In this document: positions 36,434 to 53,002 of the stretch, in pieces | Position numbering within the stretch: position 1 is the stretch's first letter | Layout: each line of letters opens with the position of its first letter | Origin: Frisingicoccus sp. | Lineage (GTDB): Bacteria; Bacillota; Clostridia; Lachnospirales; Lachnospiraceae | Length of the DNA: 64,000 nt | Assembly: GCF_047030795.1 (NCBI RefSeq) | Contig: NZ_JBKYIC010000001.1 | Strand: one strand, 5' to 3' | Program-made: the position numbers and the translations under genes | Notes under the pieces: generated by a model | Told to the model about the DNA's origin: nothing | Databases searched by the model: none | Seen by the model: only the letters and a program-made list of their open reading frames with translations

Positions 36434-36451
36434 TATACAGGAGATATAACT

Positions 36452-37729: not shown

Positions 37730-37732
37730 TAC

Positions 37733-37790
37733 AAAAAAGTATTCTCCTTGAGCACCTTGAAACGGTGCCTTTCGGAGAATACTTTTTCTA
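37733..37790. terminator. Bidirectional terminator between aroA (+) and the FGGY kinase gene (-)
   Basis: Hairpin GTATTCTCC..(inner GCACC/GGTGC)..GGAGAATAC flanked by an A-run and TTTTTC. Confidence 0.6.
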
Positions 37791-37795
37791 TTCTG

Positions 37796-39303
37796 TTATC
37801 TGTTCCAAAATGTTGTCAATACATCTGTTAATTCCACCCATTTCTCATATTTATTTCTCCGTTCAATATCATATGACCCGCTTCCCGGCTGATGAATATC
37901 CGCTATATGTATACATTCATCGAAGGCCTGTGAATAAGATGTATACACTCCAGCTCCGACACCGGCAGCTATCGCAGCCCCATGGGCTCCGGTTTCATCA
38001 CATGCTACAATCTCTACAGGCACTTCCAAAATGCGGGCAAATAACTCGACCCACGCAGGACTTTTACCGATTCCTCCGGTCAACCTTACCTTCTCAATCC
38101 GAAATCCGGCTTTTTTAAAATAATCCATATGATATTTATGTATGAACACAATTCCCTCAGCGACAGAAGCTATCATATCTTCTATCGTTGTATTCAAATC
38201 TATTCCCACAAATCCGGCCTTCGCATTGGGATGAATGCTTGGCTGTGCAACAAATGGAAGATAATAAAGCTCAGGTGAAAACACATCTTTTGATATTATA
38301 TGATTCACCTTCTGATACAAATCTGACGCTTCATAAGTACCGCACCCCATAATGGAATTTCCACAGGTCTTATACAACCATTCCAGGTTATTGGCCGAAG
38401 CTCCGCTCCATGAACAATTCAAATATTTTCCCGGATCAATATAAAACATATTCGCTGAGGCGCCGGGAACAATGTTTTCTGAAGTCATCTGATTCACACA
38501 CCAACTGCCGGCAATCATATTTATAGTTCCTGATGCATCCGCACCGCTTCCAACAAAACAGGCCATATTGTCCATCATTCCGGCGGTCACCGGCGTTCCT
38601 TCACACAGACCGGTTTCCACCGAAGCAGCTTTACTGACGCCACCAACAATATCACTGCCTCTTTCCTTTAACCCAGGAAGACACCCAAACATTTCTTCAA
38701 TTCCATACATACGCATCAGCTTTTCCGAGTAATCTCCTGTCTGCATATCCAGAAGAGCCGAACCGCCCATACTATTTTTATTTCCGATACAGCATCCTGT
38801 CAAACGATATACAATATAACCGCCAAACAAAAGAATATGTCTTATATTCTTATAAATTTCCTGACGATATGTTTTATACCATCGAAGCAATATGGCAGGC
38901 TGTCCTCCCCACAGATCTCCCCCGGTCATACGTTGGATCACCGGACCAATATCACTGTTTTTAAGCTCATCTGCCAAAAGATTTGCCCGATAATCATTCG
39001 AATAAATTCCCGGTGCGATCAACTGCCCATTTTCGCCCAGAAAGATAATACCATTCCCGTAGGTTGAAATGCCAATTCCCCGTATCTGTTCTGCCGGAAT
39101 AGCTGAAGATGCCAAAAGCCTTCGTATACTCTGACTTATCCTTCTCCATAAATCTTCAGCATCATATTCTTCAAACCCTGTACCTGCCGGTTCCAGATGA
39201 ACACTTGGACAGGTTTCCATCCCGATTTTACATCCAGAACGATCAAATAAAACTATTTTTATACTTGTATTTCCCCCATCGATACCCAATAAATATTCAG
39301 ACA
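37796..39303 (-). CDS. FGGY-family carbohydrate kinase (LsrK-like / xylulokinase-like)
   Basis: 502 aa from the RBS-supported start (GGAGG..ATGTCTGAATATTTATTGGG). It carries the FGGY N- and C-domains (LLGIDGGNTSIK...). Confidence 0.8.
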
Positions 39304-39324
39304 TTGAACCTCCTTCCCATTCCC

Positions 39325-39364
39325 CTTTATATAAAAACGGACACTGCATCCAGGCAATGTCCGT
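39325..39364 (-). terminator. Intra-cluster rho-independent terminator/attenuator between the pfkB-like gene and the FGGY kinase gene
   Basis: ACGGACATTGCCTGGATGCAGTGTCCGT followed by TTTTTATAT on the minus strand. Confidence 0.55.
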
Positions 39365-39399
39365 TATATAAAAAGGAGAATTAAAAAATGAAAAATCTT

Positions 39400-40356
39400 C
39401 TATTTCATGTTCATGCAGGCTTCAATTTCACTCAGTTCTGGCATCACTGTCATCGCACCTTTTCTGGATGTTATTATAGCCGCCCCCACATTGGCATATT
39501 CTAAAATGTTTTTTAGGATATCCCGATTCAGATTTTCCATGCCGATATCCAGAACTTTACTCAGTGCGATTCCAAAAAAAGTATCTCCAGCTCCAGTTGT
39601 CTCAATTGTTTCCCATTGATGACAGGCTGCCACTTCAATCGACTCTTTTTTATAATAACATCGGCTTCCTTTGATTCCCATCGTCAGAAATATCAAGGGA
39701 ATTGAATAGATTGTCCTGAGTTTTAAAATTCCCAGTTCCAAATCCTTTTCCCCCGTAATCCACCGGAGTTCCGAGTCCGATATTTTTAAAATATCACACA
39801 TTTGAAGTCCATAGGTAATCTGCCTCCAGAGCAATTCCTCTGAATCCCATAGATTTTCCCGGATATTTGGATCAAAACTAATCTGCGCACCGTTCGCCTT
39901 TGCTATAGATACGGCCATCTTTGTCGCCTCTCGATTCTTTTCATGAGTCATCGACAATGTGCCAAAATGAAATAACCTTGTATTTTTAAGCAGCGACTGA
40001 TGTACATCAGAAAATTCAAGCATCATATCTGCTCCCGGATTTCTGTAAAAAGAAAAACATCGATCACCTTCTGGTGTTTTTGAAACAAAAGCAAGCGTTG
40101 TCGGCACCTTATCATCAAAGCAAAGATTTTCCACGCTGATCTGAGCCGACATTAAAGCATTCCGGAGCATTAAACCAAGAGGATCATTTCCCACTTTTCC
40201 GATAAAGGCTGTTTTCTTTCCCATTTTACCCATCATTGCCAGCAGATTACAGGGTGCACCACCCGGATTTGCACTATAGACAGCCGGACCGGATGCATCT
40301 GTTTCTTCCTGAATAAAGTCAACCAATAATTCACCAATAGCTACTGCATCATACAT
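39400..40356 (-). CDS. PfkB-family carbohydrate kinase (fructokinase-like)
   Basis: 318 aa with ribokinase/pfkB motifs (GGAPCN...; DTTGAGDTF). Confidence 0.8.
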   Translation of the reverse strand: MYDAVAIGELLVDFIQEETDASGPAVYSANPGGAPCNLLAMMGKMGKKTAFIGKVGNDPLGLMLRNALMSAQISVENLCFDDKVPTTLAFVSKTPEGDRCFSFYRNPGADMMLEFSDVHQSLLKNTRLFHFGTLSMTHEKNREATKMAVSIAKANGAQISFDPNIRENLWDSEELLWRQITYGLQMCDILKISDSELRWITGEKDLELGILKLRTIYSIPLIFLTMGIKGSRCYYKKESIEVAACHQWETIETTGAGDTFFGIALSKVLDIGMENLNRDILKNILEYANVGAAIITSRKGAMTVMPELSEIEACMNMK

Positions 40357-40357
40357 A

Positions 40358-41260
40358 TTATTTTACCTTCGTATCCAGATAAAATTCGTAGGCTTCATTA
40401 TCCGTATAACTTTCATGAATAACTTTAGCAACAGCCTTTGCCATAGCCTTCGGATCTTCTGCCTGGAAAATATTTCTTCCCATATCCACGCCGCGTGCAC
40501 CTTCACTGATTGCTCTATAGGCCAGAGTAAGTGCTTCTTTTGGCGGCAGCTGTTTTCCTCCTGCAACCACGATCGGCACTGGACAACCGGATGTTACTTT
40601 TTCAAAATCTTCACAGTAATAGGTTTTTACAATCTGTGCGCCTAATTCGGCCAGCACGCGTGTAGCCAGTGAAAAGAACTGAGGGCTTCTGGCCATTTGC
40701 TTACCGACAGCCACAACCCCAAGCGTAGGAATTCCATATTTAACACCAAGGTCAATTGTACGGCAAAGATTTGTAATCGTCTCTTTTTCATCTTCCGTTC
40801 CAAGGAAAGTCTGTACGGCCATCGCCGACGCATTCATTCGAATAACATCTTCAATATCCACACCGATTGTTTCAGATGTAACATCTTCTGAAAGTACCGT
40901 GCTGCCCGCCGAACATCTAAGGGCAATTGGTTTATTGAACATTGGAGGCAGGCATGTCCGAATTGCTCCTCGTGTTGCCATAACGACATCAATATCTTCC
41001 TGAAGCTCCGGAAGCAGAATGTCTAACCGTTCCAATCCTTTAGTTGCTCCTGAAATATAACCATGATCCACTGCAAGAATTAAGGCATTGCCGCTTTTGG
41101 GATTAAAAATCCGGGACATACGATCCTTCATTCCCCAACTCATGTTGTCCATTCCTTTAATGTGATAATTCGTTTTTCCAGGGGCTGTGTCCGTGTGAAA
41201 ATTTTTCGAAGGATCAATGCCCTCATGATTATTTGTTTTGATACCATCCATGTCTGCCAT
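40358..41260 (-). CDS. DeoC/FbaB (class I aldolase) family protein, LsrF-like (3-hydroxy-5-phosphonooxypentane-2,4-dione thiolase-like)
   Basis: About 300 aa from the RBS-supported ATG (AAAGGTGG..ATGGCAGACATGGAT). It has the class-I aldolase TIM-barrel fold. It sits next to an LsrACDB-like transporter and an FGGY kinase. Confidence 0.65.
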   Translation of the reverse strand: MADMDGIKTNNHEGIDPSKNFHTDTAPGKTNYHIKGMDNMSWGMKDRMSRIFNPKSGNALILAVDHGYISGATKGLERLDILLPELQEDIDVVMATRGAIRTCLPPMFNKPIALRCSAGSTVLSEDVTSETIGVDIEDVIRMNASAMAVQTFLGTEDEKETITNLCRTIDLGVKYGIPTLGVVAVGKQMARSPQFFSLATRVLAELGAQIVKTYYCEDFEKVTSGCPVPIVVAGGKQLPPKEALTLAYRAISEGARGVDMGRNIFQAEDPKAMAKAVAKVIHESYTDNEAYEFYLDTKVK

Positions 41261-41291
41261 AATGTAACCACCTTTCTTAATTATGTATTTA

Positions 41292-42278
41292 TTATTTTTT
41301 ATGGTCTGCAAGATAATTAATAATCATTACAAGGATTAAAACAAATCCCCAAATAAATGTTTTCTGATAACTACTGAATCTTAATATATTAAATCCACTG
41401 GAAAGAATCTGTAATGTGATAATGGATAAAACAATACCAACAACCTTCCCTTTTCCTCCAAAAGGACTGATGCCGCCAAGAATGGCAACGAGGAGACATT
41501 GCAAAATATAGGATGAACCGTAATCTGCCTTTGCCGACATGGCTCTGGAACACACAATAATGCCGGCCACAGCCGAAAGCATGCCGCTGATAACAAAGGT
41601 TAAAATGGTCACCCGTCCGTTATGAATTCCTGAAAATAACGATGCCTTACTGTTCGTACCAAGCATATACACATCCATGCCAAACTTTCGTTTCTGTAAT
41701 AATACACTCATCAACAGGATAATAATCAAGAACAAGATCATTATCAACGGAATTCCCAACACCTGAGCATTCCCTAAAACACCATAGGCACTGTCCATAC
41801 CGGTAACTGCCGAACCGTTGGTAATGATAATCGCTATACCCTGAAAAATCTGCATACTTCCCAAAGTCGCCAGCATCGCCGGAACACCAAGATAATGGAC
41901 GATTGCTCCATTAAGCACGCCGCACAACGCACCTATGATCAAAACAACGACATAAGATACAAGTACAGCCGCTGTGCCTCCCATAGAATCTGCAAGTCTC
42001 AAAACCAGTATCGATGAAATAATTCCGCAAAGATTACCAATACCGACAACCGATAAATCAATACCCCCAAGGAGCATGGCAAAAGTAACTGCCGTTGCAA
42101 ATATGCCGATTTCCGGCATCTGGGTCATCATCGAACTCAACATGGACATGCTCAGCATCGTGGACTTATTCGGAATGACAAATAAGATTACAAAGAAAAC
42201 AACAACCATTATGACCAGCAGACGAAATATCTCAGAATTTTCATTAATTATCTTTTTGAACTTTGTCTTTTTTACCAT
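41292..42278 (-). CDS. Sugar ABC transporter permease (LsrD/RbsC-like)
   Basis: 328-aa BPD_transp_2 permease. Confidence 0.8.
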   Translation of the reverse strand: MVKKTKFKKIINENSEIFRLLVIMVVVFFVILFVIPNKSTMLSMSMLSSMMTQMPEIGIFATAVTFAMLLGGIDLSVVGIGNLCGIISSILVLRLADSMGGTAAVLVSYVVVLIIGALCGVLNGAIVHYLGVPAMLATLGSMQIFQGIAIIITNGSAVTGMDSAYGVLGNAQVLGIPLIMILFLIIILLMSVLLQKRKFGMDVYMLGTNSKASLFSGIHNGRVTILTFVISGMLSAVAGIIVCSRAMSAKADYGSSYILQCLLVAILGGISPFGGKGKVVGIVLSIITLQILSSGFNILRFSSYQKTFIWGFVLILVMIINYLADHKK

Positions 42279-42293
42279 TATGATTTGTCCCCC

Positions 42294-43307
42294 TTATTCG
42301 TCATTTTCCAATACCGGAGCTATCTTTCTCTGATCTTTTAAAACCTGGTAGGACGATATTCCTGTACCGATCACAATGACAATTCCGATTACCAGTGTCT
42401 GCCACGTTGACGGAATACCTACCAAAATGAGACAACTCTTAACCATAGTGATCAAAAATAATCCCAGAAATGTACCAAGTACCGTCCCCCGTCCTCCACT
42501 GATTTTAGTACCACCAAGGACGACCATTGCAATAATTGTCATTTCACCGCCCATTAAGTCCGTAGGAATACAACAGCGTGTTTGAATGGAATGAGAAAGA
42601 CCAGCCAGTCCTGACACCAAACCTATGTAAGCATAAACAAATATAATAATTTTATTCACCGGGAAACCTACGCGCTCAGCGGCTATTCTGTCACCGCCAA
42701 TGGCATAAATCATTCGTCCCAACATCGTTTTGTTCAATATAAACCAGGTAAGAAGCATGATGACCAGCATAAAAATGAATGTTATCGGTATAATTGTTTG
42801 CGAGGCACCGGATGTTACCACCCACAACCGGAATTTTGAAACTTTCTCTAAAGGATCCACAAGTCGATTTACCTGTGAACCCCCAAGGACAGAAATCAAA
42901 AGGCCATAAAATGCGCTTGAGGTTCCTAATGTGACAACAAAAGCCGGAAGCTTAAACCTTGTAATCAAAAAACCATTAATTAATCCCAGGGCCAGTCCGA
43001 TTCCCATGGACATCATAAATAGTAAGATCACCGGGCCACTGTAATCTACAGACTGGGCAAATCGATTGGTTATATACATAGAACATACGGCAATAGCCGG
43101 AAAGGAAACGTCAATGCCGCCAATAATAATTCCAAGCATAATGGCATAGGCCATCATACCGTCAATTATGAGATTACGTATAATTCCGGCCAGATTCGAG
43201 GCCGTGAAGAACACCGGATTTTTAATGCCAATCAACAAAGCAATTAAAATAATAGTTAAAATCAGATAGGTTTCCTGCTTATTTTTTTTATAAAATCTTT
43301 TCATCAC
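42294..43307 (-). CDS. Sugar ABC transporter permease (LsrC/RbsC-like)
   Basis: 337-aa BPD_transp_2 permease. Confidence 0.8.
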   Translation of the reverse strand: MMKRFYKKNKQETYLILTIILIALLIGIKNPVFFTASNLAGIIRNLIIDGMMAYAIMLGIIIGGIDVSFPAIAVCSMYITNRFAQSVDYSGPVILLFMMSMGIGLALGLINGFLITRFKLPAFVVTLGTSSAFYGLLISVLGGSQVNRLVDPLEKVSKFRLWVVTSGASQTIIPITFIFMLVIMLLTWFILNKTMLGRMIYAIGGDRIAAERVGFPVNKIIIFVYAYIGLVSGLAGLSHSIQTRCCIPTDLMGGEMTIIAMVVLGGTKISGGRGTVLGTFLGLFLITMVKSCLILVGIPSTWQTLVIGIVIVIGTGISSYQVLKDQRKIAPVLENDE

Positions 43308-43315
43308 TTTTCCAC

Positions 43316-44806
43316 CTACCCTTCAACAAGCATGGCGCTTAACTGCTTGTCTGTCACATTCTGTGTTTCACAGGCATGGGTCATCCGTCCCCGATTCATG
43401 ACAAAAACTCTATTGCAATTCTGAAGCACCTCCGATATATCATCGGAAATAATGATAACTCCCATTCCATGTCCGGCCAATTTACGGGCATAAGCGTGGA
43501 TATCCGCTTTTGAACCTACATCGACACCAACTGTCGGGCTGTTCAAAATCAATATTTTCGGTTCGGTCTCAATCCATTTCGCAATGACCACCTTTTGCTG
43601 GTTCCCACCGGATAATGCCTGCACAGGCAATTCTCCTGAAGGTGTAACAATCTTCAATTCATCGATCCATTTGTTAACCTCTTCATCGATCTTTTTCTGG
43701 CTGATAAATCCATATTTATCAATCATCTTTCGATAGGATGAAACCATTACATTTTTTCCGATACTATGGGGCATAAACAGTCCTTCCGTCAACCGATCCT
43801 CCGGGACACAGGCAATACCATTTTTTATGGCATCCTGTACGCCTTTAAGTTCCGTTTTCTTTCCTTCTATGTACAGTTCACCTTCATATATAGGCACCAT
43901 ACCGAAGAGTGCCTTTGCCAGTTCAGAACGTCCTGAGCCCAAAAGTCCGGTAATACCGATAATCTCGCCGGCATACAATTCAAAACTTATATCTTTAAAA
44001 AGAGATTTTGAAGATATATTTTTTACTTCGAGTAAAAGATGCTCTTTTTTATCCGGCCCCGGGAATACGGAATTATCCAGCTTTCGTCCGGTCATATAAA
44101 AAATAAATTTTTCATTGTCAAAATCTTTCATGGCCCCGTCAATGACTTTCTTTCCATTCCGGATAATTGTCAGTTCATCTGCAATTTCAAAAACCTCTTC
44201 AAGCTTGTGACTTACAAAAAGAATCGATATTCCTTTTTTTTGAAGTTCCCGAACGATTTTAAATAGAGATGCCACTTCCTTTTTTGTCAGTGCCGTTGTT
44301 GGTTCATCCATGATCAGCAGTCTTGCATCATGAAGCAGGGCCCGGCAAATAGCCACCAACTGTTTATCCGCGACAGACAAATCGCCAAGACATGCATCCA
44401 AATCTATGTCAATGCCTACCAGAGACATTATTTTCCCGGCCTTTGTTCGGATGGAATTCCAGTCCACCAATTTCTTTTTTTCATATCTTTCTGATGTCAT
44501 TGCTATATTCTCTGCCACTGTTAAATTGGGAAAAATAGCAAAATCCTGATAAATAATCTGAATCCCGGCATCAATAGCCTGCTGCGGTGTCAGTCTGGAA
44601 AATTCTTTTCCATCAATCCTGATGGTTCCGCCATTTGGCACGTAGACACCTGCGATAATCTTAATAAGAGTTGATTTACCGCAGCCATTTTCACCGGCCA
44701 GGCAACGGGTTTCTCCTTCGTAAATCGTTAAATCTACATTCTGAAGTGCTTTGACACCGGCAAAATTTTTGGAAATTCCTTTTAATTCAATTAATGCCTT
44801 TTTCAT
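43316..44806 (-). CDS. Sugar ABC transporter ATP-binding protein with duplicated ATPase domains (LsrA/RbsA-like)
   Basis: 496 aa with two Walker A motifs (GENGCGKST; GLLGSGRSE) and two signature motifs. Confidence 0.85.
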   Translation of the reverse strand: MKKALIELKGISKNFAGVKALQNVDLTIYEGETRCLAGENGCGKSTLIKIIAGVYVPNGGTIRIDGKEFSRLTPQQAIDAGIQIIYQDFAIFPNLTVAENIAMTSERYEKKKLVDWNSIRTKAGKIMSLVGIDIDLDACLGDLSVADKQLVAICRALLHDARLLIMDEPTTALTKKEVASLFKIVRELQKKGISILFVSHKLEEVFEIADELTIIRNGKKVIDGAMKDFDNEKFIFYMTGRKLDNSVFPGPDKKEHLLLEVKNISSKSLFKDISFELYAGEIIGITGLLGSGRSELAKALFGMVPIYEGELYIEGKKTELKGVQDAIKNGIACVPEDRLTEGLFMPHSIGKNVMVSSYRKMIDKYGFISQKKIDEEVNKWIDELKIVTPSGELPVQALSGGNQQKVVIAKWIETEPKILILNSPTVGVDVGSKADIHAYARKLAGHGMGVIIISDDISEVLQNCNRVFVMNRGRMTHACETQNVTDKQLSAMLVEG

Positions 44807-44859
44807 AAAAATTTTCCTTTCAACGCATTCCGCTGTACTTTTTCATACACCTGAATTGA

Positions 44860-44888
44860 CAGGTCCGGCAAATCTGCAGCCGGACCTG
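44860..44888. other. Perfect 10-bp stem-loop in the lsrB-lsrA intergenic region
   Basis: CAGGTCCGGC-aaatctgca-GCCGGACCTG with no clear U-run. It is probably a processing or stability element or a partial attenuator. Confidence 0.45.
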
Positions 44889-44903
44889 CCTGGATTTACC
44901 AGA

Positions 44904-45965
44904 TTAGAAATCATATTCACTCATATTATCTTTATCCACATCAATCCATGCGGAACCATTAATAATATTTCCGTTTACGGTAAGATTTTTATATCCATCC
45001 GGAGTTAAGCTGACACCGTCAGATATATCTTCACCATTTAATACTTTTACACAAAGTTCAGCCAACGCATATCCTGCATCTGCCGGATCCCAAAATGTAA
45101 TTTTATCAATCGCACCAGATTCCAAATACTGCTCTGCTGTAGATACAAGGCAAGTACCAACAACGTATGTACTGTCTTCAAGTCCCTGTTCTTCAATTGC
45201 TCTTGCCACACCCGGAACATCAGCCATCGCAGATCCGAGGAAACCTTTCACATCCGGATATGTCCGCAATATTTCCTGAGTTTTCTGATACGCCACTTCC
45301 GAATCTTCAGTTGTTTCATTCTTACTGGAAACTACTTTCATATTTGGATATTTTTCTTCCTGAAGAGCTACTTCCGCATCAATCCATTCATTGTGTGATG
45401 TGGCTGTCAATGCGCCAAGGAAAGTCGTATATTCTCCTTCTTCGCCCATCATCTCTGCCAGAAGTTCCATAAGATGCTGTCCATATTCTGCATTATTAAA
45501 TGCTTCTAAATCATAATCCGCATTTTTAACATCGGTTGCTTCATGAGTAACTACAACGATGCCTTTGTCCCTTGCCTTCTGAAGAACCGTTTCCACAGCT
45601 TCCGTAGAATTCGGAATAACGACCATAGCATCTACGCCCTGTGCAATCAAATCTTCAATAACAGCAACTTGTTCGGCTGGGTCCGCTGTATCTGCACCGG
45701 TAATATAAACATCCATTCCAGTGTCAGCAACAAACTGATCAATACCCACCTGCATACGGTCATACCATGCAATACCCGTAATCTTTACAACGATAGCCAC
45801 CGTATATTTCTCATCTGTATCCGCTGATGTTTTGGTTTCTGCAGTTGTTTCTTCGGTTGTCTCAGCAGTTGTTTCTGTTTTAGTTTCCTTACTTCCTGAA
45901 CTGCATCCGGCTAGTATTCCTGCCAGCATGCTGCATGCCAATAAAACACTCAACATTTTTTTCAT
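44904..45965 (-). CDS. Periplasmic-binding-protein type I substrate-binding lipoprotein, LsrB-like (autoinducer-2 binding protein family)
   Basis: Lipoprotein signal (LAGCSSG) and a PBP1 fold. The C-terminus ...DKDNMSEYDF parallels E. coli LsrB ...DNIDKYDF. A GGGAGG RBS precedes the ATG. Confidence 0.7.
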   Translation of the reverse strand: MKKMLSVLLACSMLAGILAGCSSGSKETKTETTAETTEETTAETKTSADTDEKYTVAIVVKITGIAWYDRMQVGIDQFVADTGMDVYITGADTADPAEQVAVIEDLIAQGVDAMVVIPNSTEAVETVLQKARDKGIVVVTHEATDVKNADYDLEAFNNAEYGQHLMELLAEMMGEEGEYTTFLGALTATSHNEWIDAEVALQEEKYPNMKVVSSKNETTEDSEVAYQKTQEILRTYPDVKGFLGSAMADVPGVARAIEEQGLEDSTYVVGTCLVSTAEQYLESGAIDKITFWDPADAGYALAELCVKVLNGEDISDGVSLTPDGYKNLTVNGNIINGSAWIDVDKDNMSEYDF

Positions 45966-45994
45966 AGTAAAACCTCCCATATCCCATAAATCTA

Positions 45995-46540
45995 TTATTC
46001 TTCATCTTCATAAGGAAAAATACGAGTCATTCCCTCCGGCACTTCAATAAACGGGCAGTTTCCAAGCTCGTAAATAAATCCTACATACGGTTCTGCATTC
46101 ATATAGGCATGAATATCGGTAAAAAACTTTCCTGTCGACATGATTGGAACACCATTGTCTTCAAATTCATACATAACATCTTCCAACTTTTCATCAGCTA
46201 TCTTTTCTTTAATATGATGAAGCCCCGGGCCATGCCGATCCAACCAATCCTGATAAATTGTCGGTCCTTTTACCGGCTGAATAACCTCAATTTCAAAATC
46301 ACCGACCATGGTTATGGCAATTCGCATTTCCCATGGCTCTTCTACTTTCTTTCCTCCTCTTTTTCCATGTTCCAGATACATCCAGTCCATGTTTTCATTG
46401 TTAAAGCTTCTCACTTTCCACGGACCGATTTTCAAGCGATCCACCCATTGCTGAAGCGTAGCTTCCAAATTATCTGTAATTGCACATATCTGCCAGATTT
46501 TCCGGTTTTTATTGTACGCCTCAAGTTCTTTGTTCGTCAT
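45995..46540 (-). CDS. VOC/glyoxalase-fold protein (possible LsrG-analogous isomerase?)
   Basis: 181 aa with a glyoxalase-like beta-alpha-beta-beta-beta element (MRIAITMVGDFEIEVIQP). It lies 14 nt upstream of the lsrB-like gene. Confidence 0.5.
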   Translation of the reverse strand: MTNKELEAYNKNRKIWQICAITDNLEATLQQWVDRLKIGPWKVRSFNNENMDWMYLEHGKRGGKKVEEPWEMRIAITMVGDFEIEVIQPVKGPTIYQDWLDRHGPGLHHIKEKIADEKLEDVMYEFEDNGVPIMSTGKFFTDIHAYMNAEPYVGFIYELGNCPFIEVPEGMTRIFPYEDEE

Positions 46541-46569
46541 TGTCTCTCTACCTCCTGTTAAATATTTAT

Positions 46570-47568
46570 TTACATCTTAAAATAAGGTGTCTTACATGGT
46601 GCATTCCAGTAATTCAGCAATTCATCATCCATCCTTACCATGCACATCTGGAAACCAGCCTGTTCCTGCACAGTTAACAATTCACCTACGTGACTGCCAA
46701 CGATCTCAATTCCTTTTTCTTCAAGATATTGTTTACAACGCCGGAATACAATCAACTGTTCCATCAGTGTCGTTGCTCCTGAACCATTAATAAGCAATAG
46801 TATCTTTTCACCCGGTTGAAGCTGCAGATCCTGAATCAGCGCATCTACCATAATTTCCGCAGTTTCATTGGCCGTCTTTACCTTAGTTCGTCCACCACCG
46901 CCTTCGCCGTGCTATCCCATGCCGATTTCCATTTCATCTTCCGACAATGTTGCCAGTTCGGCACCAGTGATCGGATGAGTTGCACCTCTGAGCGCCACGG
47001 CCAGCGTTGCCATATTATCCGCAACCTTCTGGGCAATTTCCGCGACCTCTTCTACATTTTTTCCGTCTGCAGCCGCTGCACCGGCGATTTTATATACAGG
47101 AACGCATCCGACTAATCCCCGGCGATTACCTGCATCACTTCTTGGGACACTGGAAATATCTTCCTGAGTAACAACTTTGATGACCTGAATGCCATCTTTG
47201 CGAATCATTTTCATAGCCATATTTCCCGAAAGCATGTCACCTGCATGATTTAATACAATATAAACAACACCCTTGCCTTTGTCCGCTCTTCTCAGTGCAT
47301 CCGCACAAATCTGAGGTCCCGGTGCGGCAAAAATATCGCCGATCACACCAATATCGACCATTCCTTCGCCGACAAACCCGGAACAACATGGTTCATGCCC
47401 TGAGCCTCCCATCGTAACAATGGTTACCCGATCTGCCTCATCGAGCTTCCTGTTGATGACCATGTGATTTTCTTCCACCTGCAAATATTCACCATTTGCC
47501 ATCGCAAGTCCTTCAAGTAATTCCTCTGTAAGATTTTCCGGTTCATTAATGAACTTTTTCATTTTCAT
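46570..47568 (-). pseudogene. dhaK: Dihydroxyacetone kinase subunit DhaK interrupted by an in-frame TAG (amber) codon at 46912-46914
   Basis: The N-terminal part ends ...EMEIGMG, then TAG sits where the conserved Ile of the GMGIHGEPG motif is expected, and the same frame continues HGEGGGGRTKVK...MVDALIQ... to a normal end. The two ORFs (46912..47601 and 46570..46851) are in the same frame. Confidence 0.7.
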
Positions 47569-47581
47569 AATTGAAGCCTCC

Positions 47582-48217
47582 TCATACCATGTAGCCTTCA
47601 TACAGGCCTTTAAATAAATACATCATTCCCACTGCTCCTGCGTCCGGGAATCCCAAAGTCTGTTCTCCATAGGATTTTGCTCTTCCAAATTTAGCCACAT
47701 AATTTTCAGTGGCCTTCATTCCAGCCTCTGCGCCATTGGCAGCCGCTCTCAAAACCTCTTCTACATTTTTCGATTGAATTTTTCCAATATAGTCTCCGGC
47801 AAGAATGAGAGCATCCATCATGGTCTTATCTCCGACTCCGGCATTTGAAATCGTTTTCATTTCCCGAATTCCAGCCTCAATCATATCTTTTACCAAATCG
47901 CCATCTAATATGTTTTTATTTTTTACCCCTTGTCCAAAGCCCTGAAAAAGCGTTCCCCACAGCGGGCCCGCCGATCCTCCGTTGACATTCATGATTTCAA
48001 TACCAAGATTATCCAGAAAATCCCCCATATTCTCATCTGTCCAGTTATCCGTTTCTTTTCGTATACAATCTGCGATCCGATTAACCGTGATGCCGTGATC
48101 CCCGTCGCCAAATTTTGAATCAATATCAGACAGTAAATCCGTGTGCTGCTTTAATAAATCAGCGGTATAAATCAGCATTTTTTGTAATCTGTTTTTTGTA
48201 ATTTCTTTCTCACACAT
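47582..48217 (-). CDS. dhaL: Dihydroxyacetone kinase subunit DhaL (DAK2 domain)
   Basis: DAK2 domain motif DGDHG. The start was set at the RBS-supported ATG (AGGAG-N8-ATGTGTGAG) to avoid overlap with the upstream oxidoreductase gene. Confidence 0.8.
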   Translation of the reverse strand: MCEKEITKNRLQKMLIYTADLLKQHTDLLSDIDSKFGDGDHGITVNRIADCIRKETDNWTDENMGDFLDNLGIEIMNVNGGSAGPLWGTLFQGFGQGVKNKNILDGDLVKDMIEAGIREMKTISNAGVGDKTMMDALILAGDYIGKIQSKNVEEVLRAAANGAEAGMKATENYVAKFGRAKSYGEQTLGFPDAGAVGMMYLFKGLYEGYMV

Positions 48218-48243
48218 TTTTCCACTCCTGTCGTCAAATCCAA

Positions 48244-49392
48244 TTACCATTGAATTTCTTTCCACTGCCGCTCCTTCTGACTTTTCATAATGGCTTCGCA
48301 AAGTAATGCTTCTCTGAATCCGTCAGAAAATACAGGAAAACTTCTTTCTTTCGAATAATCACCATCCAGAATATACTGATAAACCTCTTTAAATAACTGT
48401 TTTGAAGTATCGGCAAATCCTTCATTATGGCCCCCGGGCAGTGTGATGATGCTTTGAGCACCCGGATATACTAACGATGGATCACGAATAATAATCTCAT
48501 TTCCCGTATCCCGACGTCCGATCATGAGCTGATTTGGATCTTCTGAATTCCATAAAACAGAACCTAAAGAGCCATTGATTTCAAAAGTAACTCTGTTTTT
48601 ATGACCACAGGCCATTTGATTTACTGTAAAAATACCTTTTTGTCCACCGTCAAAATGAAGTAATACGGAAGCATAATCTTCTGTATCGATATCCACGACT
48701 TCATAATCATCATTTTTTAAAATCTTACCTGACCATGTCTCAATGCCTTTTTTAGGCTTTTTCCTCTTTGGAAGAAATGTCCCCATATCCGCATTGACAT
48801 CCGTAATTTTTAAACCAGTAACATATTCTACTAAATCCATCCAATGGGTTCCGATATCCCCCACAGCTCTCGTTTCTCCACTCTGAGCAGATTCCAGACG
48901 CCAACTATAATCTGTATCCTTTACGAGCCAGTCCTGAAGATAAGAACCGGTAATTGAATATAGTTTTCCTATTTCCCCCTTCTCAATCATTTCTTTCGCA
49001 TGGCGTATCAGTGGATAATAACGTATATTAAAGTGAATCGCATTGACCAGATTTTTCTGTTCAGCTATGGAAATCAGATCTCTGGCTTCTTCCGAAGTCA
49101 TTGTCAAAGGTTTTTCACACACCACATGCTTTCCTGCTTCCAGTGCTTTTTTTACCATTGAGTAATGTAATAAATTCGGTGTACATATATGTATTACCTG
49201 AATTTGGGGATCTTCCAGCACATACTCGATGTCGTCATATACTTTATCAACACCTAATAGCAACGCTTTCCTTTGCGTTTTCTCCAAATCTCTTCCAACG
49301 AGCGCAACTACCCTTCCCAAATTCGTTCTGCGAATGGCTTCTACATGTTCTTCACCAATAAATCCGACACCAACCACCGCAACATTTAACAT
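48244..49392 (-). CDS. Gfo/Idh/MocA-family NAD(P)-dependent oxidoreductase
   Basis: 382 aa with an N-terminal Rossmann fold (VAVVGVGFIGEEH) and the GFO_IDH_MocA C-domain. Confidence 0.85.
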   Translation of the reverse strand: MLNVAVVGVGFIGEEHVEAIRRTNLGRVVALVGRDLEKTQRKALLLGVDKVYDDIEYVLEDPQIQVIHICTPNLLHYSMVKKALEAGKHVVCEKPLTMTSEEARDLISIAEQKNLVNAIHFNIRYYPLIRHAKEMIEKGEIGKLYSITGSYLQDWLVKDTDYSWRLESAQSGETRAVGDIGTHWMDLVEYVTGLKITDVNADMGTFLPKRKKPKKGIETWSGKILKNDDYEVVDIDTEDYASVLLHFDGGQKGIFTVNQMACGHKNRVTFEINGSLGSVLWNSEDPNQLMIGRRDTGNEIIIRDPSLVYPGAQSIITLPGGHNEGFADTSKQLFKEVYQYILDGDYSKERSFPVFSDGFREALLCEAIMKSQKERQWKEIQW

Positions 49393-49745
49393 TTTTCACC
49401 ACCCCTTTTTGTTTTGTGTAAATATATTAACATTTTGTTTTGATTAAATATTACATCTTCTACCTTTTATTGTCAATTGGTTTTGTCATTTTCTACACTA
49501 TCGCCATTTTTTGTCTTAGCATTTTGTGCATAATTTTATATTTTTTGTATTTACTTTTTCCATAATTAATATATTATATTAATATATGGTGTAAATTTTT
49601 ACATTTTTATATTAATTCTATCCATACCATTACATTTGCTACACTTTTTGTTGTCAAAAAATTTATAGCTATTTATTTTTAATTTGACAAATTCTACATT
49701 TCACGCTATTTTATTGTTAGATGATTAAACTTTAGGGGATTTTAT

Positions 49746-50699
49746 ATGGAAATTAAGCAGGAAAAAGCTGAACGACTTGTTCAGATAGCAAAGATGTACT
49801 ATGAAGAAAATTTAACACAAAGTGAGATTGCAAAAGAAATCGGTGTATCCCGTGCCCTGATCTGTCGTCTTTTAAATGAGGCAAAAAAATATGGCATTGT
49901 TACAATACAGATTCATTCACCGGAAGAGGATTATTCTCTTCTGAAAAATCAGATTCGAAACCGCTTTAAGATTGATGACGTCTTTATCGTAAATGCCCCA
50001 TTAGGACAAAAAATAACCGATGAACGCATCTCGGAAAGTTTTTCAGATGTTCTTTTGAATTTATTGCCGTCCTGCAGCAACATCGGATGTAGTTGGGGAA
50101 AGATCATTCATGAAGCTCTCGAAAGCCTTGCATCAAAAAAAATAGACTTTCAACTTTCTGCGAATGCCAGTGTCTTTCCGCTGGCCGGTAACATGATTAC
50201 AACAGGGTATTCTATTGACGCGCAAAAAATTGTCCAGACATTTTCTCTGTGTTTCAATGCGACACCAAACTTTTTATATGCGCCAGCCTTTTTAGAAAGC
50301 CCGATGGAATTGGACCTGTATCACAAAACAGAGAATTATAAAAATATTGCTCAATGCTGGAAAAACATTGATCTGGCTATCATAAAAATTGACAACTATC
50401 CAACCAGCCCAGACCTGGGTACTGCGGCCAGATATAAAGTTTTATTGAAAGAAAAGCATGCCTGCGGCAGCTTTCTCGCATATTATTACAACCTTCAAGG
50501 TGAGATTATCCGTTCGGATTTCGATTACAGTATACAGATTCCTATTGAATATTTGGCATCCTGTAAAAAGGTCATCGGTATCTGTTCATCAAATGTTATG
50601 CCAAAAAGTCTGCTTGGAGCAATGAATACCGGACTTTTTACCCATATTATTGCCTCTCAGGATTTGCTGGAATCCGTTCTTGACCTGAAACGCATATAA
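49746..50699 (+). CDS. SorC/DeoR-family sugar-binding transcriptional regulator (LsrR-like)
   Basis: 317 aa with an N-terminal HTH (LTQSEIAKEIGVSRALICRLL) and a SorC sugar-binding domain. It is divergent from the lsr-like operon. Confidence 0.8.
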   Translation: MEIKQEKAERLVQIAKMYYEENLTQSEIAKEIGVSRALICRLLNEAKKYGIVTIQIHSPEEDYSLLKNQIRNRFKIDDVFIVNAPLGQKITDERISESFSDVLLNLLPSCSNIGCSWGKIIHEALESLASKKIDFQLSANASVFPLAGNMITTGYSIDAQKIVQTFSLCFNATPNFLYAPAFLESPMELDLYHKTENYKNIAQCWKNIDLAIIKIDNYPTSPDLGTAARYKVLLKEKHACGSFLAYYYNLQGEIIRSDFDYSIQIPIEYLASCKKVIGICSSNVMPKSLLGAMNTGLFTHIIASQDLLESVLDLKRI

Positions 50700-50783
50700 A
50701 AAATCCCCCGATACAATCTAATGTATCGGGGGATTTTACAGAACACTCTGTAAAATTCAAAAACCAGCTTAAAATTTTTTATC

Positions 50784-51695
50784 TTACCCTGCGATCATCA
50801 TACAAAGCGGAATGGTCACGATTGATAACAGGGTCGTCATACCGAAAAGTTCTGTCGCATAGTAATCATCCCGGCCATAGAGAATCGCCATGGTGATGGT
50901 CATGGCTCCCGACGGACAGGCTGCTGTCACCGCCGCGACAACCCGCATCTGTTCATCAATCGGAATGAAGCGAAGCAGCAGGGCGAAGATAGCTGATGAA
51001 ACGATCAGTCGAAGGGCCACAACAAAAAACATCCGGCCTTTTTTCAATGTATCCTTAAAATTCAACTGAGCCATAATGGCACCAGACAAAAGCATGGCCA
51101 GCGGTGTATTCATATCGGCAATAGAATTCATGGCAAATGCGATGTTTGTTGGAATCTTCAGCTGAAAGATAAAGCACAGGATTCCTTCGCAGACCGCAAT
51201 CAGGCATGGATTAATCAGTTTCTTCGGCTGAAATCCACTGTTATCCAGCAAAAGAATACCGTGTGTCCAACAGAATATATGGAATGTAGCCACAAATACA
51301 GTCGCATAAATAACACCAATGCTGCCAAAAAGGGCATATCCCAACGGAACACCGATAAAACCACAGTTGGTATAGGTCACAGCAAATTTTTCAACGGCCA
51401 GGTCATACCCTTCCTTTTTATGGAGTAAAAAATGAGCCAGTGTGATTGAAATCACATAACTGATGATTGCCAGCACAAACAATAGTCCCATATTTTTCAA
51501 AAGCGCCGTATCGTATTCCATCTGGAAAGACATAAAGATCAATATAGGATTTACAATCAAAGTACTCAGTCTTGAAAGTTTTTCTTTGGTATTATTATCA
51601 ATGATGCCAACTTTATAACAGATGACTCCAACCACCATAATAATGAATATGGATACAATCTTGCCCAACACTGTGGATACAATCATCTCTGCCAA
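50784..51695 (-). CDS. AEC-family (auxin efflux carrier-like) membrane transporter
   Basis: 303-aa ten-TM Mem_trans family protein. Confidence 0.75.
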   Translation of the reverse strand: MAEMIVSTVLGKIVSIFIIMVVGVICYKVGIIDNNTKEKLSRLSTLIVNPILIFMSFQMEYDTALLKNMGLLFVLAIISYVISITLAHFLLHKKEGYDLAVEKFAVTYTNCGFIGVPLGYALFGSIGVIYATVFVATFHIFCWTHGILLLDNSGFQPKKLINPCLIAVCEGILCFIFQLKIPTNIAFAMNSIADMNTPLAMLLSGAIMAQLNFKDTLKKGRMFFVVALRLIVSSAIFALLLRFIPIDEQMRVVAAVTAACPSGAMTITMAILYGRDDYYATELFGMTTLLSIVTIPLCMMIAG

Positions 51696-51734
51696 TCTCC
51701 TTTTCTTTTGAATATGATTCTGACAATTATAGCA

Positions 51735-52913: not shown

Positions 52914-53002
52914 TTTCTTACCCCTTCCCCAAATATCATTATGAAAAAGCCCAGATATCTCTTCCGATATCTGAGCCCTTTATTTACTGTCTGACCTGAT
53001 GC

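Follow-up and report, generated by a model that had tools for sequence, protein, structure and literature searches.

The locus considered here, at positions 37796 to 50699 of a 64,000-nucleotide stretch of Frisingicoccus sp. DNA (the window), raises the question of which compound is imported and degraded by a gene cluster that looks like an autoinducer-2 (AI-2) Lsr system with additional enzymes. The first-pass annotation had offered two answers: an AI-2 system that reaches DHAP and acetyl-CoA by another downstream route, or an Lsr-like system adapted to a different small furanose. Its gene content and coordinates were confirmed, whereas an intact dhaK, several Lsr orthology labels and the inclusion of two further kinases in the core did not hold. 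A SorC-family regulator is encoded on the plus strand, divergently from an operon on the minus strand with the order Gfo/Idh/MocA dehydrogenase, DhaL, DhaK, VOC-fold protein, substrate-binding protein (SBP), double ABC ATPase, two permeases, LsrF-like enzyme, PfkB kinase and FGGY kinase. From the dehydrogenase to the PfkB gene the intergenic gaps measure only 1–97 nt, and a ribosome-binding site (RBS) precedes every intact gene. The divergent SorC regulator, the CUT2 importer, a kinase and a terminal LsrF-type enzyme are shared with the Lsr system of E. coli and Salmonella (LsrACDB, LsrK, LsrR, LsrF, LsrG). In contrast to that system, the conserved kinase of the window is DhaKL and not an FGGY protein, the gene set is enlarged by a dehydrogenase and a VOC protein, the SBP, FGGY kinase and regulator are only 21–23% identical to their counterparts and score far under the curated cut-offs, and LsrG is lacking; the earlier statement to this effect was borne out by tblastn over the whole 64 kb (best E = 2.4).

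As far as sequence can tell, the LsrF-like gene (40358..41260, minus strand) is the only one of the putative Lsr genes that is Lsr by orthology. The deduced class-I-aldolase-fold (DeoC-fold) protein reaches 392.5 bits against NF006081, the profile for the 3-hydroxy-5-phosphonooxypentane-2,4-dione thiolase family (cut-off 297), matches PDB 3GLC with 317 bits and is 48% identical to LsrF from E. coli, which forms DHAP and acetyl-CoA from P-HPD and CoA. All residues named as catalytic or phosphate-binding, including the LsrF-specific D251, are retained (D57, H58, K203, Y205, G226, G227, D251, M252, G253 and R254; PMC2728841), and the designation of the protein as LsrF-like is thus upheld. In a neighbour-joining tree (all trees were calculated by this method, without support values), LsrF proteins from true lsr operons and from loci with DhaKL interleave, both being 55–68% identical to the window protein. 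The genuine LsrF enzyme and this interleaving speak for a system of non-orthologous components that takes up and degrades AI-2 (DPD), in which an SBP of the type of PDB 5BRA would bind a form of AI-2, DhaKL would replace LsrK, the VOC protein would replace LsrG, and LsrF would release DHAP and acetyl-CoA, so that the signal would be cleared from the gut lumen. We consider this improbable. One point against it is found in LsrF itself: the position of E. coli F61 is occupied by Ile in the window protein and in 18 of 19 LsrF sequences from DhaKL-type loci, while LsrK-type loci and E. coli have Phe, and the substrate of the LsrF enzymes in DhaKL-type loci may therefore differ from P-HPD. In L095, L101, L116 and L172, the SBPs and kinases found with LsrF homologues are unrelated ones, which means that LsrF alone does not fix the substrate.

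The transport half is predicted not to be Lsr. The lipoprotein SBP (44904..45965, minus strand; Peripla_BP_4, 208 bits) is LsrB-like at superfamily level only, with 21% identity to E. coli LsrB and 100 bits against an NCBIfam cut-off of 384. Its best PDB match is 5BRA (300 bits), followed by AauA (9I1M, 184 bits), and LsrB structures reach just 63–98 bits. Conservation of the DPD-contacting residues of LsrB, a check proposed in the first-pass annotation, was examined: K35, D116, D166, Q167, P220 and A222 correspond to K, E, S, H, S and M, i.e., five of six are changed and K35 alone is kept, while true clostridial LsrB (57% identical to the E. coli protein) retains K, D, D and Q. The C-terminus (...DKDNMSEYDF), said to mirror that of LsrB, is a subfamily trait and no LsrB signature, as the non-LsrB relative 5BRA ends with ...ENMDKYDF and AauA contains NKDNID near its C-terminus. 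On the other hand, five of the six D-ribulose contacts of AauA are kept (K37, W43, E118, H167, E196). Retention of the Glu (E225) that in AauA hydrogen-bonds the D-ribulose hydroxymethyl group argues against a methyl-terminated ligand. In the tree, the SBP falls among D-ribulose binders and binders of the L-xylulose and deoxyribose types, apart from true LsrB, and its nearest relatives by sequence are located in pentulose and deoxyribose loci: sister SBPs in L004 adjoin a gene of the L-ribulose-5-phosphate 3-epimerase family and a pentulokinase-like FGGY gene, and a relative in L009 adjoins an AraB-type ribulokinase and a KpsF-like isomerase. The CUT2-type ATPase with two ATP-binding domains (43316..44806, minus strand; ABC_tran twice) stays below all NCBIfam equivalog cut-offs, with AraG, XylG and RbsA outscoring LsrA, and the two BPD_transp_2 permeases (42294..43307 and 41292..42278, minus strand) find their top matches, both under cut-off, in ribose permease (143 bits) and AraH (150 bits), respectively. 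A true AI-2 importer was therefore rejected on the grounds of the lost LsrB contacts and the pentulose/deoxypentose clade of the SBP, the same two observations that weigh against AI-2 uptake by non-orthologous parts. What can be said in favour of the latter is that R-THMF, the AI-2 ligand, is a pentulofuranose analogue and that corresponding positions of the pocket are used in the LsrB and in the AauA clade.

D-ribulose importers are known from EHEC (AauA) and Citrobacter rodentium (Rbl), the latter working with a D-ribulokinase of the FGGY family and with a KpsF-like isomerase and feeding the pentose phosphate pathway (bioRxiv 10.1101/2025.02.06.636802). They share SBP subfamily, CUT2 ABC architecture and gut setting with the window. 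However, the window SBP is only 33% identical to AauA, its FGGY kinase scores 83 bits against a ribulokinase cut-off of 428, and its operon ends in LsrF. Alpha-proteobacterial SBPs of the 5BRA type are closer (43–50% identity, depending on protein and method); in contrast to the window SBP they have Gln for His at AauA position 167 and Asp for Glu at 196, and their loci (DeoR, deoC, a ribokinase-like kinase and a mutarotase) resemble 2-deoxyribose catabolism and lack DhaKL, VOC, dehydrogenase and LsrF genes.

The SorC regulator (49746..50699; Pfam Sugar-bind PF04198 and an N-terminal HTH) had been called LsrR-like, a label that applies to the superfamily only (23% identity to E. coli LsrR, 67 bits against an NCBIfam cut-off of 486). 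Acidic and basic residues common to E. coli and clostridial LsrR are not kept in the regulators of DhaKL-type loci, a further argument against AI-2 even though the residue list is weakly sourced. The 353-nt divergent intergenic region (49393..49745), presumably containing promoters and operators, yielded no Rfam family and several sigma-70-like matches on both strands, which are consensus matches only, such as TTGACA-17-TAATAT (49476-49448, minus strand) and TTGACA-17-TATTTT (49684-49712, plus strand).

The two kinase genes at the distal end, taken as operon members before, proved to be variable additions outside the conserved core. This core (dehydrogenase, DhaL, DhaK, VOC, SBP, ATPase, two permeases and LsrF, with or without PfkB and FGGY) recurs in the same order where SBPs are 64–97% identical to that of the window, namely in L001–L003, L011 (SBP 64–65%), L012–L016 and L094 (VOC 73%). 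PfkB (39400..40356, minus strand; PfkB, 146 bits), the gene of which is separated from the LsrF stop codon by a single nucleotide, reaches 208 bits against a fructokinase profile (cut-off 450) and is present among the relatives in L012 and L014 only. In the gap between the PfkB and FGGY genes lies a terminator-like hairpin (39336..39365, minus strand), a pattern match only, with a 12-bp stem containing six G-C pairs and followed by TTTATATAAA. The FGGY kinase (37796..39304, minus strand; FGGY_N and FGGY_C) scores 192 bits against XylB (cut-off 380) and 143 bits against LsrK (cut-off 528); at 23% identity to LsrK the label LsrK-like is justified for the superfamily and not for orthology. The FGGY gene is missing from L016, L011 and L094, and its product is just 58–71% identical in relatives whose neighbouring genes reach 85–98%. 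FGGY was therefore rejected as the pathway kinase, being absent from several conserved copies of the operon and located beyond the terminator-like hairpin.

This leaves DhaKL as the conserved kinase. DhaL (47582..48217, minus strand; Dak2, 144 bits), the ADP-binding subunit of a dihydroxyacetone-kinase-type enzyme, scores 129 against TIGR02365 (cut-off 138); its start is an internal ATG at 48217 with an RBS, and 211 aa are likewise called in relatives. DhaK, the substrate-binding subunit (46570..47568, minus strand), nests in a clade of LsrF-associated DhaK proteins (53–68% identity) with the motifs NHAGDML and GMGQHGEGGG, apart from DhaK of pentulose-type and actinobacterial clusters. Like the kinase of the DhaKLM systems of E. 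coli and Firmicutes, the enzyme has two subunits (Dak1/Dak2), and the clade has conserved the counterparts of H56, D109 and H218 of the E. coli protein. It is, however, a clade separate from theirs and altered around D109 and H218, DhaM is absent from the window, the linked gene is that of LsrF instead of glycerol dehydrogenase, and dhaK is truncated. DhaK holds the carbonyl of its substrate as a hemiaminal on a histidine, and the substrate must consequently be an open-chain hydroxy-ketone or hydroxy-aldehyde. By chemical reasoning, DPD and HPD both bear the hydroxy-carbonyl end required by such kinases, which is compatible with AI-2.

The VOC-fold protein (45995..46540, minus strand; 181 aa; Glyoxalase_4, PF13669, 49 bits) is the proposed isomerase. 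The alignment of its family shows no variation at A1, Q17, E85 and H109 and almost none at E158, and its best PDB match is 3GM5, a structure of unknown function. The gene adjoins DhaKL in several phyla; the family also occurs in many soil genomes without DhaKL or LsrF. Shifting a carbonyl via an enediolate is what glyoxalase I does, and LsrG has the same task.

A survey of 83 loci with LsrF homologues put this combination into context. LsrK-type FGGY is found in 31 and DhaK in 18 of them, never both together, and E. coli-type LsrG in none; depending on the architecture, the isomerase slot is held by VOC or mini-VOC, cupin or LsrG. The mutual exclusion of the kinases and the alternating occupants of the slot again favour AI-2. 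Clostridial Lsr operons ("type A", e.g., L096 from Geosporobacter ferrireducens, of the kind represented by PDB 6DSP, a clostridial LsrB that binds AI-2) share the LsrF subfamily, Firmicute hosts and the lack of E. coli-type LsrG with the window, but contain a true LsrB, a true LsrK (49% identical to that of E. coli) and a Cupin_2 gene beside LsrF, all of which the window lacks. In clostridial "type B" loci (SorC-DhaL-DhaK-LsrF-miniVOC, e.g., L097), for which our literature searches found no paper, the DhaK clade and the LsrF subfamily with I61 are those of the window, a VOC-fold partner is likewise present, and the SorC regulators are 32–38% identical to that of the window. A transporter is usually absent there, the Gfo/Idh/MocA gene is never present, and the conserved partner of about 107 aa, the profile of which matches VOC structures (E = 1e-5; H, E, H, E invariant), has no detectable similarity to the 181-aa VOC protein.

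The dehydrogenase, encoded by the first gene (48244..49392, minus strand; GFO_IDH_MocA and C-terminal domains), is found in all copies of the core operon, and AI-2 degradation would leave it without a role. Its best matches are levoglucosan dehydrogenase in NCBIfam (211 bits, far under the cut-off of 650) and 6A3F in the PDB (177 bits). A role would exist in a conventional pathway of the aldolase type, without thiolase chemistry, that degrades a pentulose, pentitol or tetrulose, a reading we regard as rather unlikely: the dehydrogenase would make a ketose from a polyol or aldose, VOC would epimerize or isomerize it, DhaKL would form the ketose 1-phosphate, and the LsrF-like protein would act as class I aldolase yielding DHAP and glycolaldehyde (or formaldehyde), in analogy to the E. 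coli D-arabinose/L-fucose route or mycobacterial tetritol pathways. Pentulose-type contacts and neighbours of the SBP point this way, as do the DhaK-family kinases of Mycobacterium smegmatis, which reportedly act on erythrulose, an Fe-alcohol dehydrogenase that the window encodes two genes away (and that follows DhaL in L010), and actinobacterial VOC-DhaKL clusters, which have a plain DhnA-type aldolase with V at position 251 in place of LsrF and a Zn-alcohol dehydrogenase nearby. These aldolases fail the LsrF equivalog cut-off, however, while the window enzyme passes it and keeps D251, the residue that sets LsrF apart from aldolases of the same fold. Moreover, the window DhaK falls outside the clade of pentulose-type loci, none of the RpiB, TIM or AP_endonuc_2 isomerases of tetritol routes is present, and L016 lacks the Fe-alcohol dehydrogenase. 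In a Microbacterium cluster the aldolase gene is followed, with overlapping reading frames, by one for a CoA-acylating aldehyde dehydrogenase; the net products of this sequence equal those of a dehydrogenase followed by a thiolase.

Whatever its substrate, the pathway is probably broken or inactive in this strain, or reliant on another kinase. The first-pass annotation took dhaK as intact and overlooked an in-frame TAG at 46912-46914 (minus strand; ...EIGMG*HGEGGGG), directly preceding the catalytic His, where ten of ten close relatives have Gln (CAG). It splits the gene into fragments of 218–229 aa (depending on the start) and 93 aa, to which Dak1 profile positions 1–201 and 223–312 are allotted. 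Since the segment with the catalytic His is removed, TAG is an ordinary stop codon in this window, no RBS was found before the 93-aa fragment, the allele is shared with two metagenome assemblies from other samples (L179, 100% nucleotide identity; L180, 99.98%), and tail genes are gained and lost between relatives, the locus might be a decaying remnant in which the amber codon switched the pathway off and other genes are heading for loss. Such decay would be compatible with any functional model of intact ancestors. We deem it very unlikely, as the other operon genes are full length and 79–99% identical to those of relatives, the lineage, sampled three times, has retained the amber allele, and low-level read-through or a stand-in by the FGGY or PfkB kinase is possible.

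The reading that we tentatively prefer, possible rather than probable, is that of an operon conserved in Lachnospiraceae for the catabolism of a small furanose sugar and composed of two modules of different ancestry. The first would be the ABC importer with its SBP of the AauA/Rbl-type/5BRA-type clade, accompanied by the dehydrogenase, and the second the SorC-regulated DhaL/DhaK with the VOC-fold protein and the LsrF-type enzyme, a trio that clostridia possess as an alternative to LsrK, LsrG (or cupin) and LsrF. After import, the sugar would be oxidized by the dehydrogenase to a diketone or keto-sugar with a free hydroxyacetone-like end, the VOC metalloenzyme would move the carbonyl via an enediolate, DhaKL would phosphorylate the terminal hydroxyl beside the carbonyl, and the LsrF-type enzyme would cleave the product via a Schiff base to DHAP and an acyl-CoA, PfkB and FGGY serving as strain-variable side entries. 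A methyl-terminated sugar (DPD, 1-deoxypentulose or 5-deoxyribose) would give acetyl-CoA; a true pentulose would give a C2 hydroxy-acyl unit, and its product, e.g., glycolyl-CoA or glycolaldehyde, would be unusual. Points that weigh against this model are the retained E225, the Ile in place of F61, LsrF homologues with unrelated partners, the altered residues of the regulators, VOC relatives outside DhaKL and LsrF loci, and the truncated dhaK. Each of the two initial proposals holds for one half of the operon: re-purposing for another small furanose for the transport half, with its SBP of the pentulose/deoxyribose clade, and the AI-2 type of system for the processing half, which ends in a genuine LsrF type. 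At the enzyme level, a different route to DHAP and acetyl-CoA is plausible because DhaKL and VOC are a recurrent clostridial substitute for LsrK and LsrG beside LsrF.

The operon spans positions 37796-50699 of the window and comprises 13 reading frames, two of which belong to dhaK. The gene for a SorC-family regulator (49746-50699, plus strand) diverges, across a spacer of 353 nt, from a minus-strand row that encodes, in this order, a Gfo/Idh/MocA dehydrogenase (GFO), DhaL, DhaK, a Glyoxalase_4-type VOC protein, a substrate-binding lipoprotein (SBP), an ABC ATPase with two domains, a pair of permeases, the LsrF-like enzyme and, at the end, kinases of the PfkB and FGGY families. Every intact gene has a ribosome-binding site, the intergenic gaps from the dehydrogenase through the PfkB gene amount to 1-97 nt, and the PfkB/FGGY interval holds a hairpin of 12 bp with a T-rich tail behind it. 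An Rfam search of positions 36000-53000 found no RNA family. The first-pass annotation, which had read the cluster as Lsr (autoinducer-2)-like, listed the genes correctly as regards reading frames and domain content, and its remark that LsrG is missing was borne out by tblastn across the whole 64-kb window, in which no LsrG homologue was found (best E = 2.4). The flanking genes are housekeeping genes or unrelated to the operon, with aroA, tyrA and the EF-G gene on one side and genes for an AEC-family transporter and an Fe-alcohol dehydrogenase on the other. The latter two (50784-52913) adjoin the regulator gene; the dehydrogenase is YqhD/FucO-like at scores under all cut-offs. The transporter is syntenic in the related loci L014 and L016, the dehydrogenase is missing from L016, and a link of the pair to the operon is therefore doubtful.

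The window proteins were compared with the products of the E. coli K-12 lsr genes, and orthology was judged by NCBIfam cut-offs. The sole Lsr model passed was that for LsrF (48% identity, 392.5 bits against a cut-off of 297, NF006081). The ATPase (35% identical to LsrA) and the permeases (28-32% identical to LsrC/LsrD) stayed under their cut-offs. The SBP, the FGGY kinase and the SorC regulator, previously described as 'LsrB-like', 'LsrK-like' and 'LsrR-like', deserve these names at superfamily level only: they share 21, 23 and 23% identity with LsrB, LsrK and LsrR and score 100 bits against a cut-off of 384 (NF011937), 143 against 528 (NF008187) and 67 against 486 (NF011947), respectively. 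The XylB model even outscores the LsrK model on the FGGY kinase (192 vs 143 bits). Clostridial lsr loci of the LsrK type, designated type A, served as a positive control; their SBP is 57% identical to LsrB and their kinase 49% to LsrK, so that real Firmicute orthologues are far nearer to the E. coli proteins than those of the window. Judged by its sequence, the regulator is not LsrR-like; the LsrR effector residues, taken from a secondary source whose numbering is off by one from the K-12 sequence and therefore used at shifted positions, are weak evidence. Taken at sequence level, the locus resembles Lsr in its outline and its last enzyme, and five of six testable sequence criteria for Lsr membership gave a negative result.

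The residues of LsrB in contact with AI-2 (R-THMF) are named in a docking methods section as K35, D116, D166, Q167, P220 and A222 (PMC13644630), a secondary source. The conservation of these DPD contacts had been suggested as a check, and in the alignment the window protein and the SBPs closest to it read K/E/S/H/S/M, whereas the clostridial type A LsrB controls retain K, D, D and Q. The six positions are said to agree with those of Pereira et al. 2009. When the window SBP was ranked against PDB structures, 5BRA, an Ochrobactrum SBP, came first with 300 bits, followed by AauA (9I1M), a D-ribulose importer protein of EHEC, and 3D02 at about 183 bits, and the LsrB structures reached 63-98 bits. 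The Kd of AauA for alpha-D-ribulofuranose is 2 µM, and the contacts are K37, W43, E118, H167, E196 and S223 (bioRxiv 10.1101/2025.02.06.636802). The first five of these contacts are retained in the window protein as K66, W72, E147, H196 and E225; the position of S223 falls into a loop of uncertain alignment, with a Met aligned and a Ser two residues before it. The two proteins are, however, just 33% identical. The resemblance of the SBP's C-terminus to that of LsrB, noted in the first-pass annotation, is not specific, as the 'YDF' end also occurs in 5BRA and a related motif lies near the C-terminus of AauA.

A neighbour-joining tree (calculated without support values), a phylogeny that had likewise been proposed, placed the window SBP apart from both E. 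coli and clostridial LsrB, which form a separate branch. It is sister to the SBPs of the related loci L004 and L010, and proceeding outward the SBPs of loci resembling Rbl, the D-ribulose importer of Citrobacter rodentium, the 5BRA group and AauA follow. L004 contains a gene of the L-ribulose-5-phosphate 3-epimerase family (217 bits vs a cut-off of 200) and a pentulokinase-like FGGY gene, while in L009 a ribulokinase of the AraB type (736 bits) is accompanied by a KpsF-like isomerase, a gene pair like that of the Citrobacter Rbl locus. The Rbl locus includes a dedicated FGGY D-ribulokinase; on the same ribulokinase model that gives the L009 kinase its 736 bits, the window FGGY kinase scores 83 bits, against a cut-off of 428. 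Alpha-proteobacterial loci of the 5BRA type combine DeoR and deoC with genes for a ribokinase-like kinase and a mutarotase, and look suited to the use of 2-deoxyribose. Taken together, the gene contexts of the SBP relatives fit a role in pentulose or deoxypentose uptake. Apiose was considered as ligand and rejected, since apiose-binding SBPs score just about 45 bits against the window protein.

The LsrF-type enzyme scores 317 bits against PDB 3GLC and retains D57, H58, K203, Y205, G226, G227, D251, M252, G253 and R254. Lys203, Asp57/His58, Asp251 and Gly226/Gly227/Gly253/Arg254 do not differ between the window protein and its counterparts from L001, L011 and L094. In LsrF, Lys203 forms the Schiff base, Gly226/Gly227/Gly253/Arg254 make up the phosphate site, and Asp251 stands where ordinary aldolases of the same fold have a catalytic Glu or Tyr (PMC2728841). 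These residues mark the window enzyme as a genuine LsrF type, and here the earlier assignment was upheld.

Homologues of the window LsrF with 63-80% identity are common in clostridia, and we surveyed 83 loci around them, on metagenome contigs of uneven length, scoring each against proteins from the window, from E. coli and from a reference set. Three architectures emerged. Type A combines an LsrK-type kinase, a true LsrB and SorC with a Cupin_2 gene beside lsrF (the kinase is found at 31 loci). Type B has the order SorC-DhaL-DhaK-LsrF followed by a protein of about 107 residues (DhaK at 18 loci; in addition, short contigs that carry the 107-aa gene), and type C is that of the window and its close relatives. 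An LsrK-type kinase and DhaK never occurred in the same locus (0 of 83), nor was an E. coli-type LsrG found at any of the 83. The Cupin_2 gene, about 114 codons long, lies beside lsrF in 26 of the 31 true-LsrB/LsrK loci (e.g., L096, L102, L106, L108, and L113); its product is a candidate for a non-orthologous replacement of LsrG.

The type B loci are the closest to the window locus and are uncharacterised. The compact operon is seen at L097 (8317-11223) and in about 17 alike (L101, L103, L104, L110, L116, L142, L149, L160-L165, L172, L173, and L177); only the four type B genes are conserved around these loci, and transporters occur in few of them, with unrelated SBPs. The 107-aa family has no Pfam match. 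Two structures with the glyoxalase fold, 2QH0 and 3HDP, are matched by its profile at E = 1e-5; H7, E40, H59 and E101 are invariant, so the protein looks like a minimal VOC enzyme, a fold assignment that relies solely on the PDB profile matches; a profile-profile comparison with the VOC family of the window detected no similarity. The locus L101 (1054-11338) encodes DhaK, DhaL, SorC, an ABC transporter whose SBP is unrelated, Cupin_2, LsrF and the mini-VOC protein, and thus has both candidate 'isomerase' partners, Cupin_2 and mini-VOC, together and lacks an FGGY kinase. Literature searches found no paper on LsrF together with DhaK or dihydroxyacetone kinase and nothing relevant on Oant_2843 or on P-HPD/LsrF with 5-deoxyribose or 1-deoxyxylulose.

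Within the LsrF family, types A and B interleave in a neighbour-joining tree calculated without support values, and type C forms one branch. The position of E. coli F61, three residues past the catalytic Asp-His pair, is occupied by Phe in E. coli and type A and by Ile in 18 of the 19 sequences from types B and C, including the window protein (Ile69, 41069-41071). The exchange is possibly a specificity marker. Ile is also present in L095, a locus in which this LsrF is paired with another SBP and an FGGY kinase.

The window stems from a Frisingicoccus-like lineage of gut Lachnospiraceae. The gene order GFO-DhaL-DhaK-VOC-SBP-ATPase-permease-permease-LsrF recurs in L001-L003, L012-L016, L011 and L094; the L011 SBP is 64-65% and the L094 VOC protein 73% identical to that of the window. 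Between the lsrF gene and aroA, the operon has a tail of variable content, made up of the genes for PfkB and FGGY (37796-40356). The window, L012 and L014 possess the two genes, and PfkB is limited to these three; FGGY alone occurs in L001 and L015, and neither in L016 (region compared, 16179-16273), where the lsrF gene is directly followed by aroA, so that the pair is an insertion or deletion at the operon end. FGGY is also absent from L011 and L094, a further point against an LsrK-like function, and diverges far more quickly than the adjoining genes, being 58-71% identical to its relatives where these reach 85-98%. On this comparison, the pathway kinase present in every copy is DhaKL.

Dak1 and Dak2 domains are present, and equivalents of the catalytic E. 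coli DhaK residues H56, D109 and H218 are encoded in the frame. The type B DhaK proteins are 53-68% identical to that of the window, which nests within their clade, shares with it the motifs NHAGDML and GMGQHGEGGG, and is separate from E. coli DhaK, the DhaK of pentulose-type loci and actinobacterial DhaK. No match for DhaM was found in the window; the phosphoryl donor may still be either ATP or the PTS. The dhaK frame itself reads '...EIGMG*HGEGGGG': a TAG (46912-46914, minus strand) replaces the CAG (Gln) of ten out of ten close relatives, one codon ahead of the catalytic His that corresponds to E. coli DhaK H218. A sequencing error was ruled out. Products of 218 and 93 residues are called identically in L179 and L180, which derive from two further sequencing projects (runs SRR31672475 and ERR13962155) and match the window at 100% and 99.98% identity, and the TAG must therefore be a real allele of a circulating strain. 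Recoding of TAG as pyrrolysine or by another code was dismissed as well; TAG terminates the PfkB and ATPase genes of the same operon and seven of the 47 long reading frames of the window, which makes recoding unlikely. No ribosome-binding site precedes the 93-aa fragment, and the DhaKL kinase of this strain is probably dead. The amber allele represents a natural loss-of-function strain for comparison with close CAG relatives.

Relatives of the 181-aa VOC protein with 40-55% identity occur in Actinobacteria, Alphaproteobacteria, Verrucomicrobia and Christensenella. A recurrent, uncharacterised cluster of genes for a regulator, an ABC transporter, DhaK, DhaL, VOC and a DhnA-type class I aldolase, in most cases with a Zn-ADH nearby, was seen in Streptomyces, Amycolatopsis, Thermomonospora, Streptosporangium, Microbacterium and one alphaproteobacterial MAG (L024, L026, L035, L036, L040, and L052, about 1-17 kb of each). 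The aldolases have Val at the position of LsrF Asp251 and reach 85-100 bits on the LsrF model. In Microbacterium aerolatum the aldolase gene is followed by overlapping frames for a Zn-ADH and a CoA-acylating aldehyde dehydrogenase (666 bits on the MMSDH model, cut-off 448). An aldolase followed by a CoA-acylating dehydrogenase yields DHAP, acyl-CoA and NADH. A dehydrogenase followed by an LsrF-type thiolase would give the same products, and on this basis we assign the conserved GFO, tentatively, to an oxidising step ahead of LsrF.

In the pathway that we propose, a small furanose would be imported and then oxidised by the GFO dehydrogenase, and the VOC metalloenzyme would shift the carbonyl group via an enediolate, as happens in glyoxalase I and in the LsrG step. 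The kinase DhaKL requires an open-chain hydroxy-carbonyl compound and would phosphorylate the end of the molecule, and LsrF would cleave the product to DHAP and acyl-CoA. Known LsrF chemistry needs 3-hydroxy-2,4-pentanedione 5-phosphate, the unphosphorylated form of which has the hydroxyacetone end required by DhaK. This precursor could be reached from DPD by isomerisation, from 1-deoxypentulose by one oxidation, and from 5-deoxyribose, a waste product of radical-SAM enzymes, by isomerisation and one oxidation. A true pentulose as substrate, with a hydroxylated acyl product, is an equally open reading, given that the SBP pocket is ribulose-like and retains the Glu that holds the hydroxymethyl group in AauA, that LsrF carries the F61I exchange and that the regulator does not resemble LsrR. 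Erythritol or threitol was also considered in view of DhaKL and the polyol-type dehydrogenase; this reading was rejected because the DhaK clade differs and the tetrulose-phosphate isomerases are absent: no RpiB-like, TIM-like or AP_endonuc_2 isomerases of the M. smegmatis/Brucella tetritol type were found in the cluster or its flanks. Such genes do occur in other loci of the SBP clade (L004, L010, and L093). Levoglucosan and inositol were discarded on dehydrogenase scores (211 bits vs 650 for levoglucosan dehydrogenase; 120 vs 355 for IolG).

The sequence evidence backs a conserved operon whose importer belongs to the pentulose/deoxypentose clade, together with a genuine LsrF-type enzyme and an LsrF-tied DhaKL clade complementary to LsrK, with a predicted VOC-fold partner in both DhaKL architectures. 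The complementary occurrence of LsrK and LsrF-linked DhaKL, together with the neighbour slot that rotates between LsrG, cupin, mini-VOC and VOC, leads us to hypothesise a second, unstudied clostridial way to make the LsrF substrate. The fuller reading is a doubtful one: DhaKL, the VOC isomerase and LsrF would constitute an unrecognised, LsrK/LsrG-free route for AI-2-type diketones that is widespread in clostridia and is fed here by a pentulose-family importer and a dehydrogenase, so that gut Lachnospiraceae would import AI-2, a reduced relative such as 1-deoxypentulose or 5-deoxyribose, or the host-derived 'AI-2 mimics' L-xylulose and L-xylosone, convert the compound intracellularly to the diketone by oxidation and burn it to DHAP and acyl-CoA.

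The PGAP annotation of many SBPs of this kind is 'autoinducer 2 ABC transporter substrate-binding protein'. The same name is attached to 5BRA-type SBPs in 2-deoxyribose-like loci (L006, 9878-10924; L007, 9878-10924). In a 2025 survey, Lachnospiraceae made up more than half of the Firmicute species with functional lsrB (PMC12503165). AI-2 surveys of the gut count 'LsrB' or 'lsr operons' largely from annotation, and as PGAP gives AI-2 names to proteins that fail the LsrB residue test, keyword-based LsrB counts in gut genomes may be too high. If the second-route hypothesis holds, it would change which gut bacteria can consume AI-2-like molecules and would add new substrates for DhaK-family kinases and VOC proteins. 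The fuller reading, if true, would tie the quenching of signals to the salvage of SAM by-products and to carbon gain in gut Lachnospiraceae.
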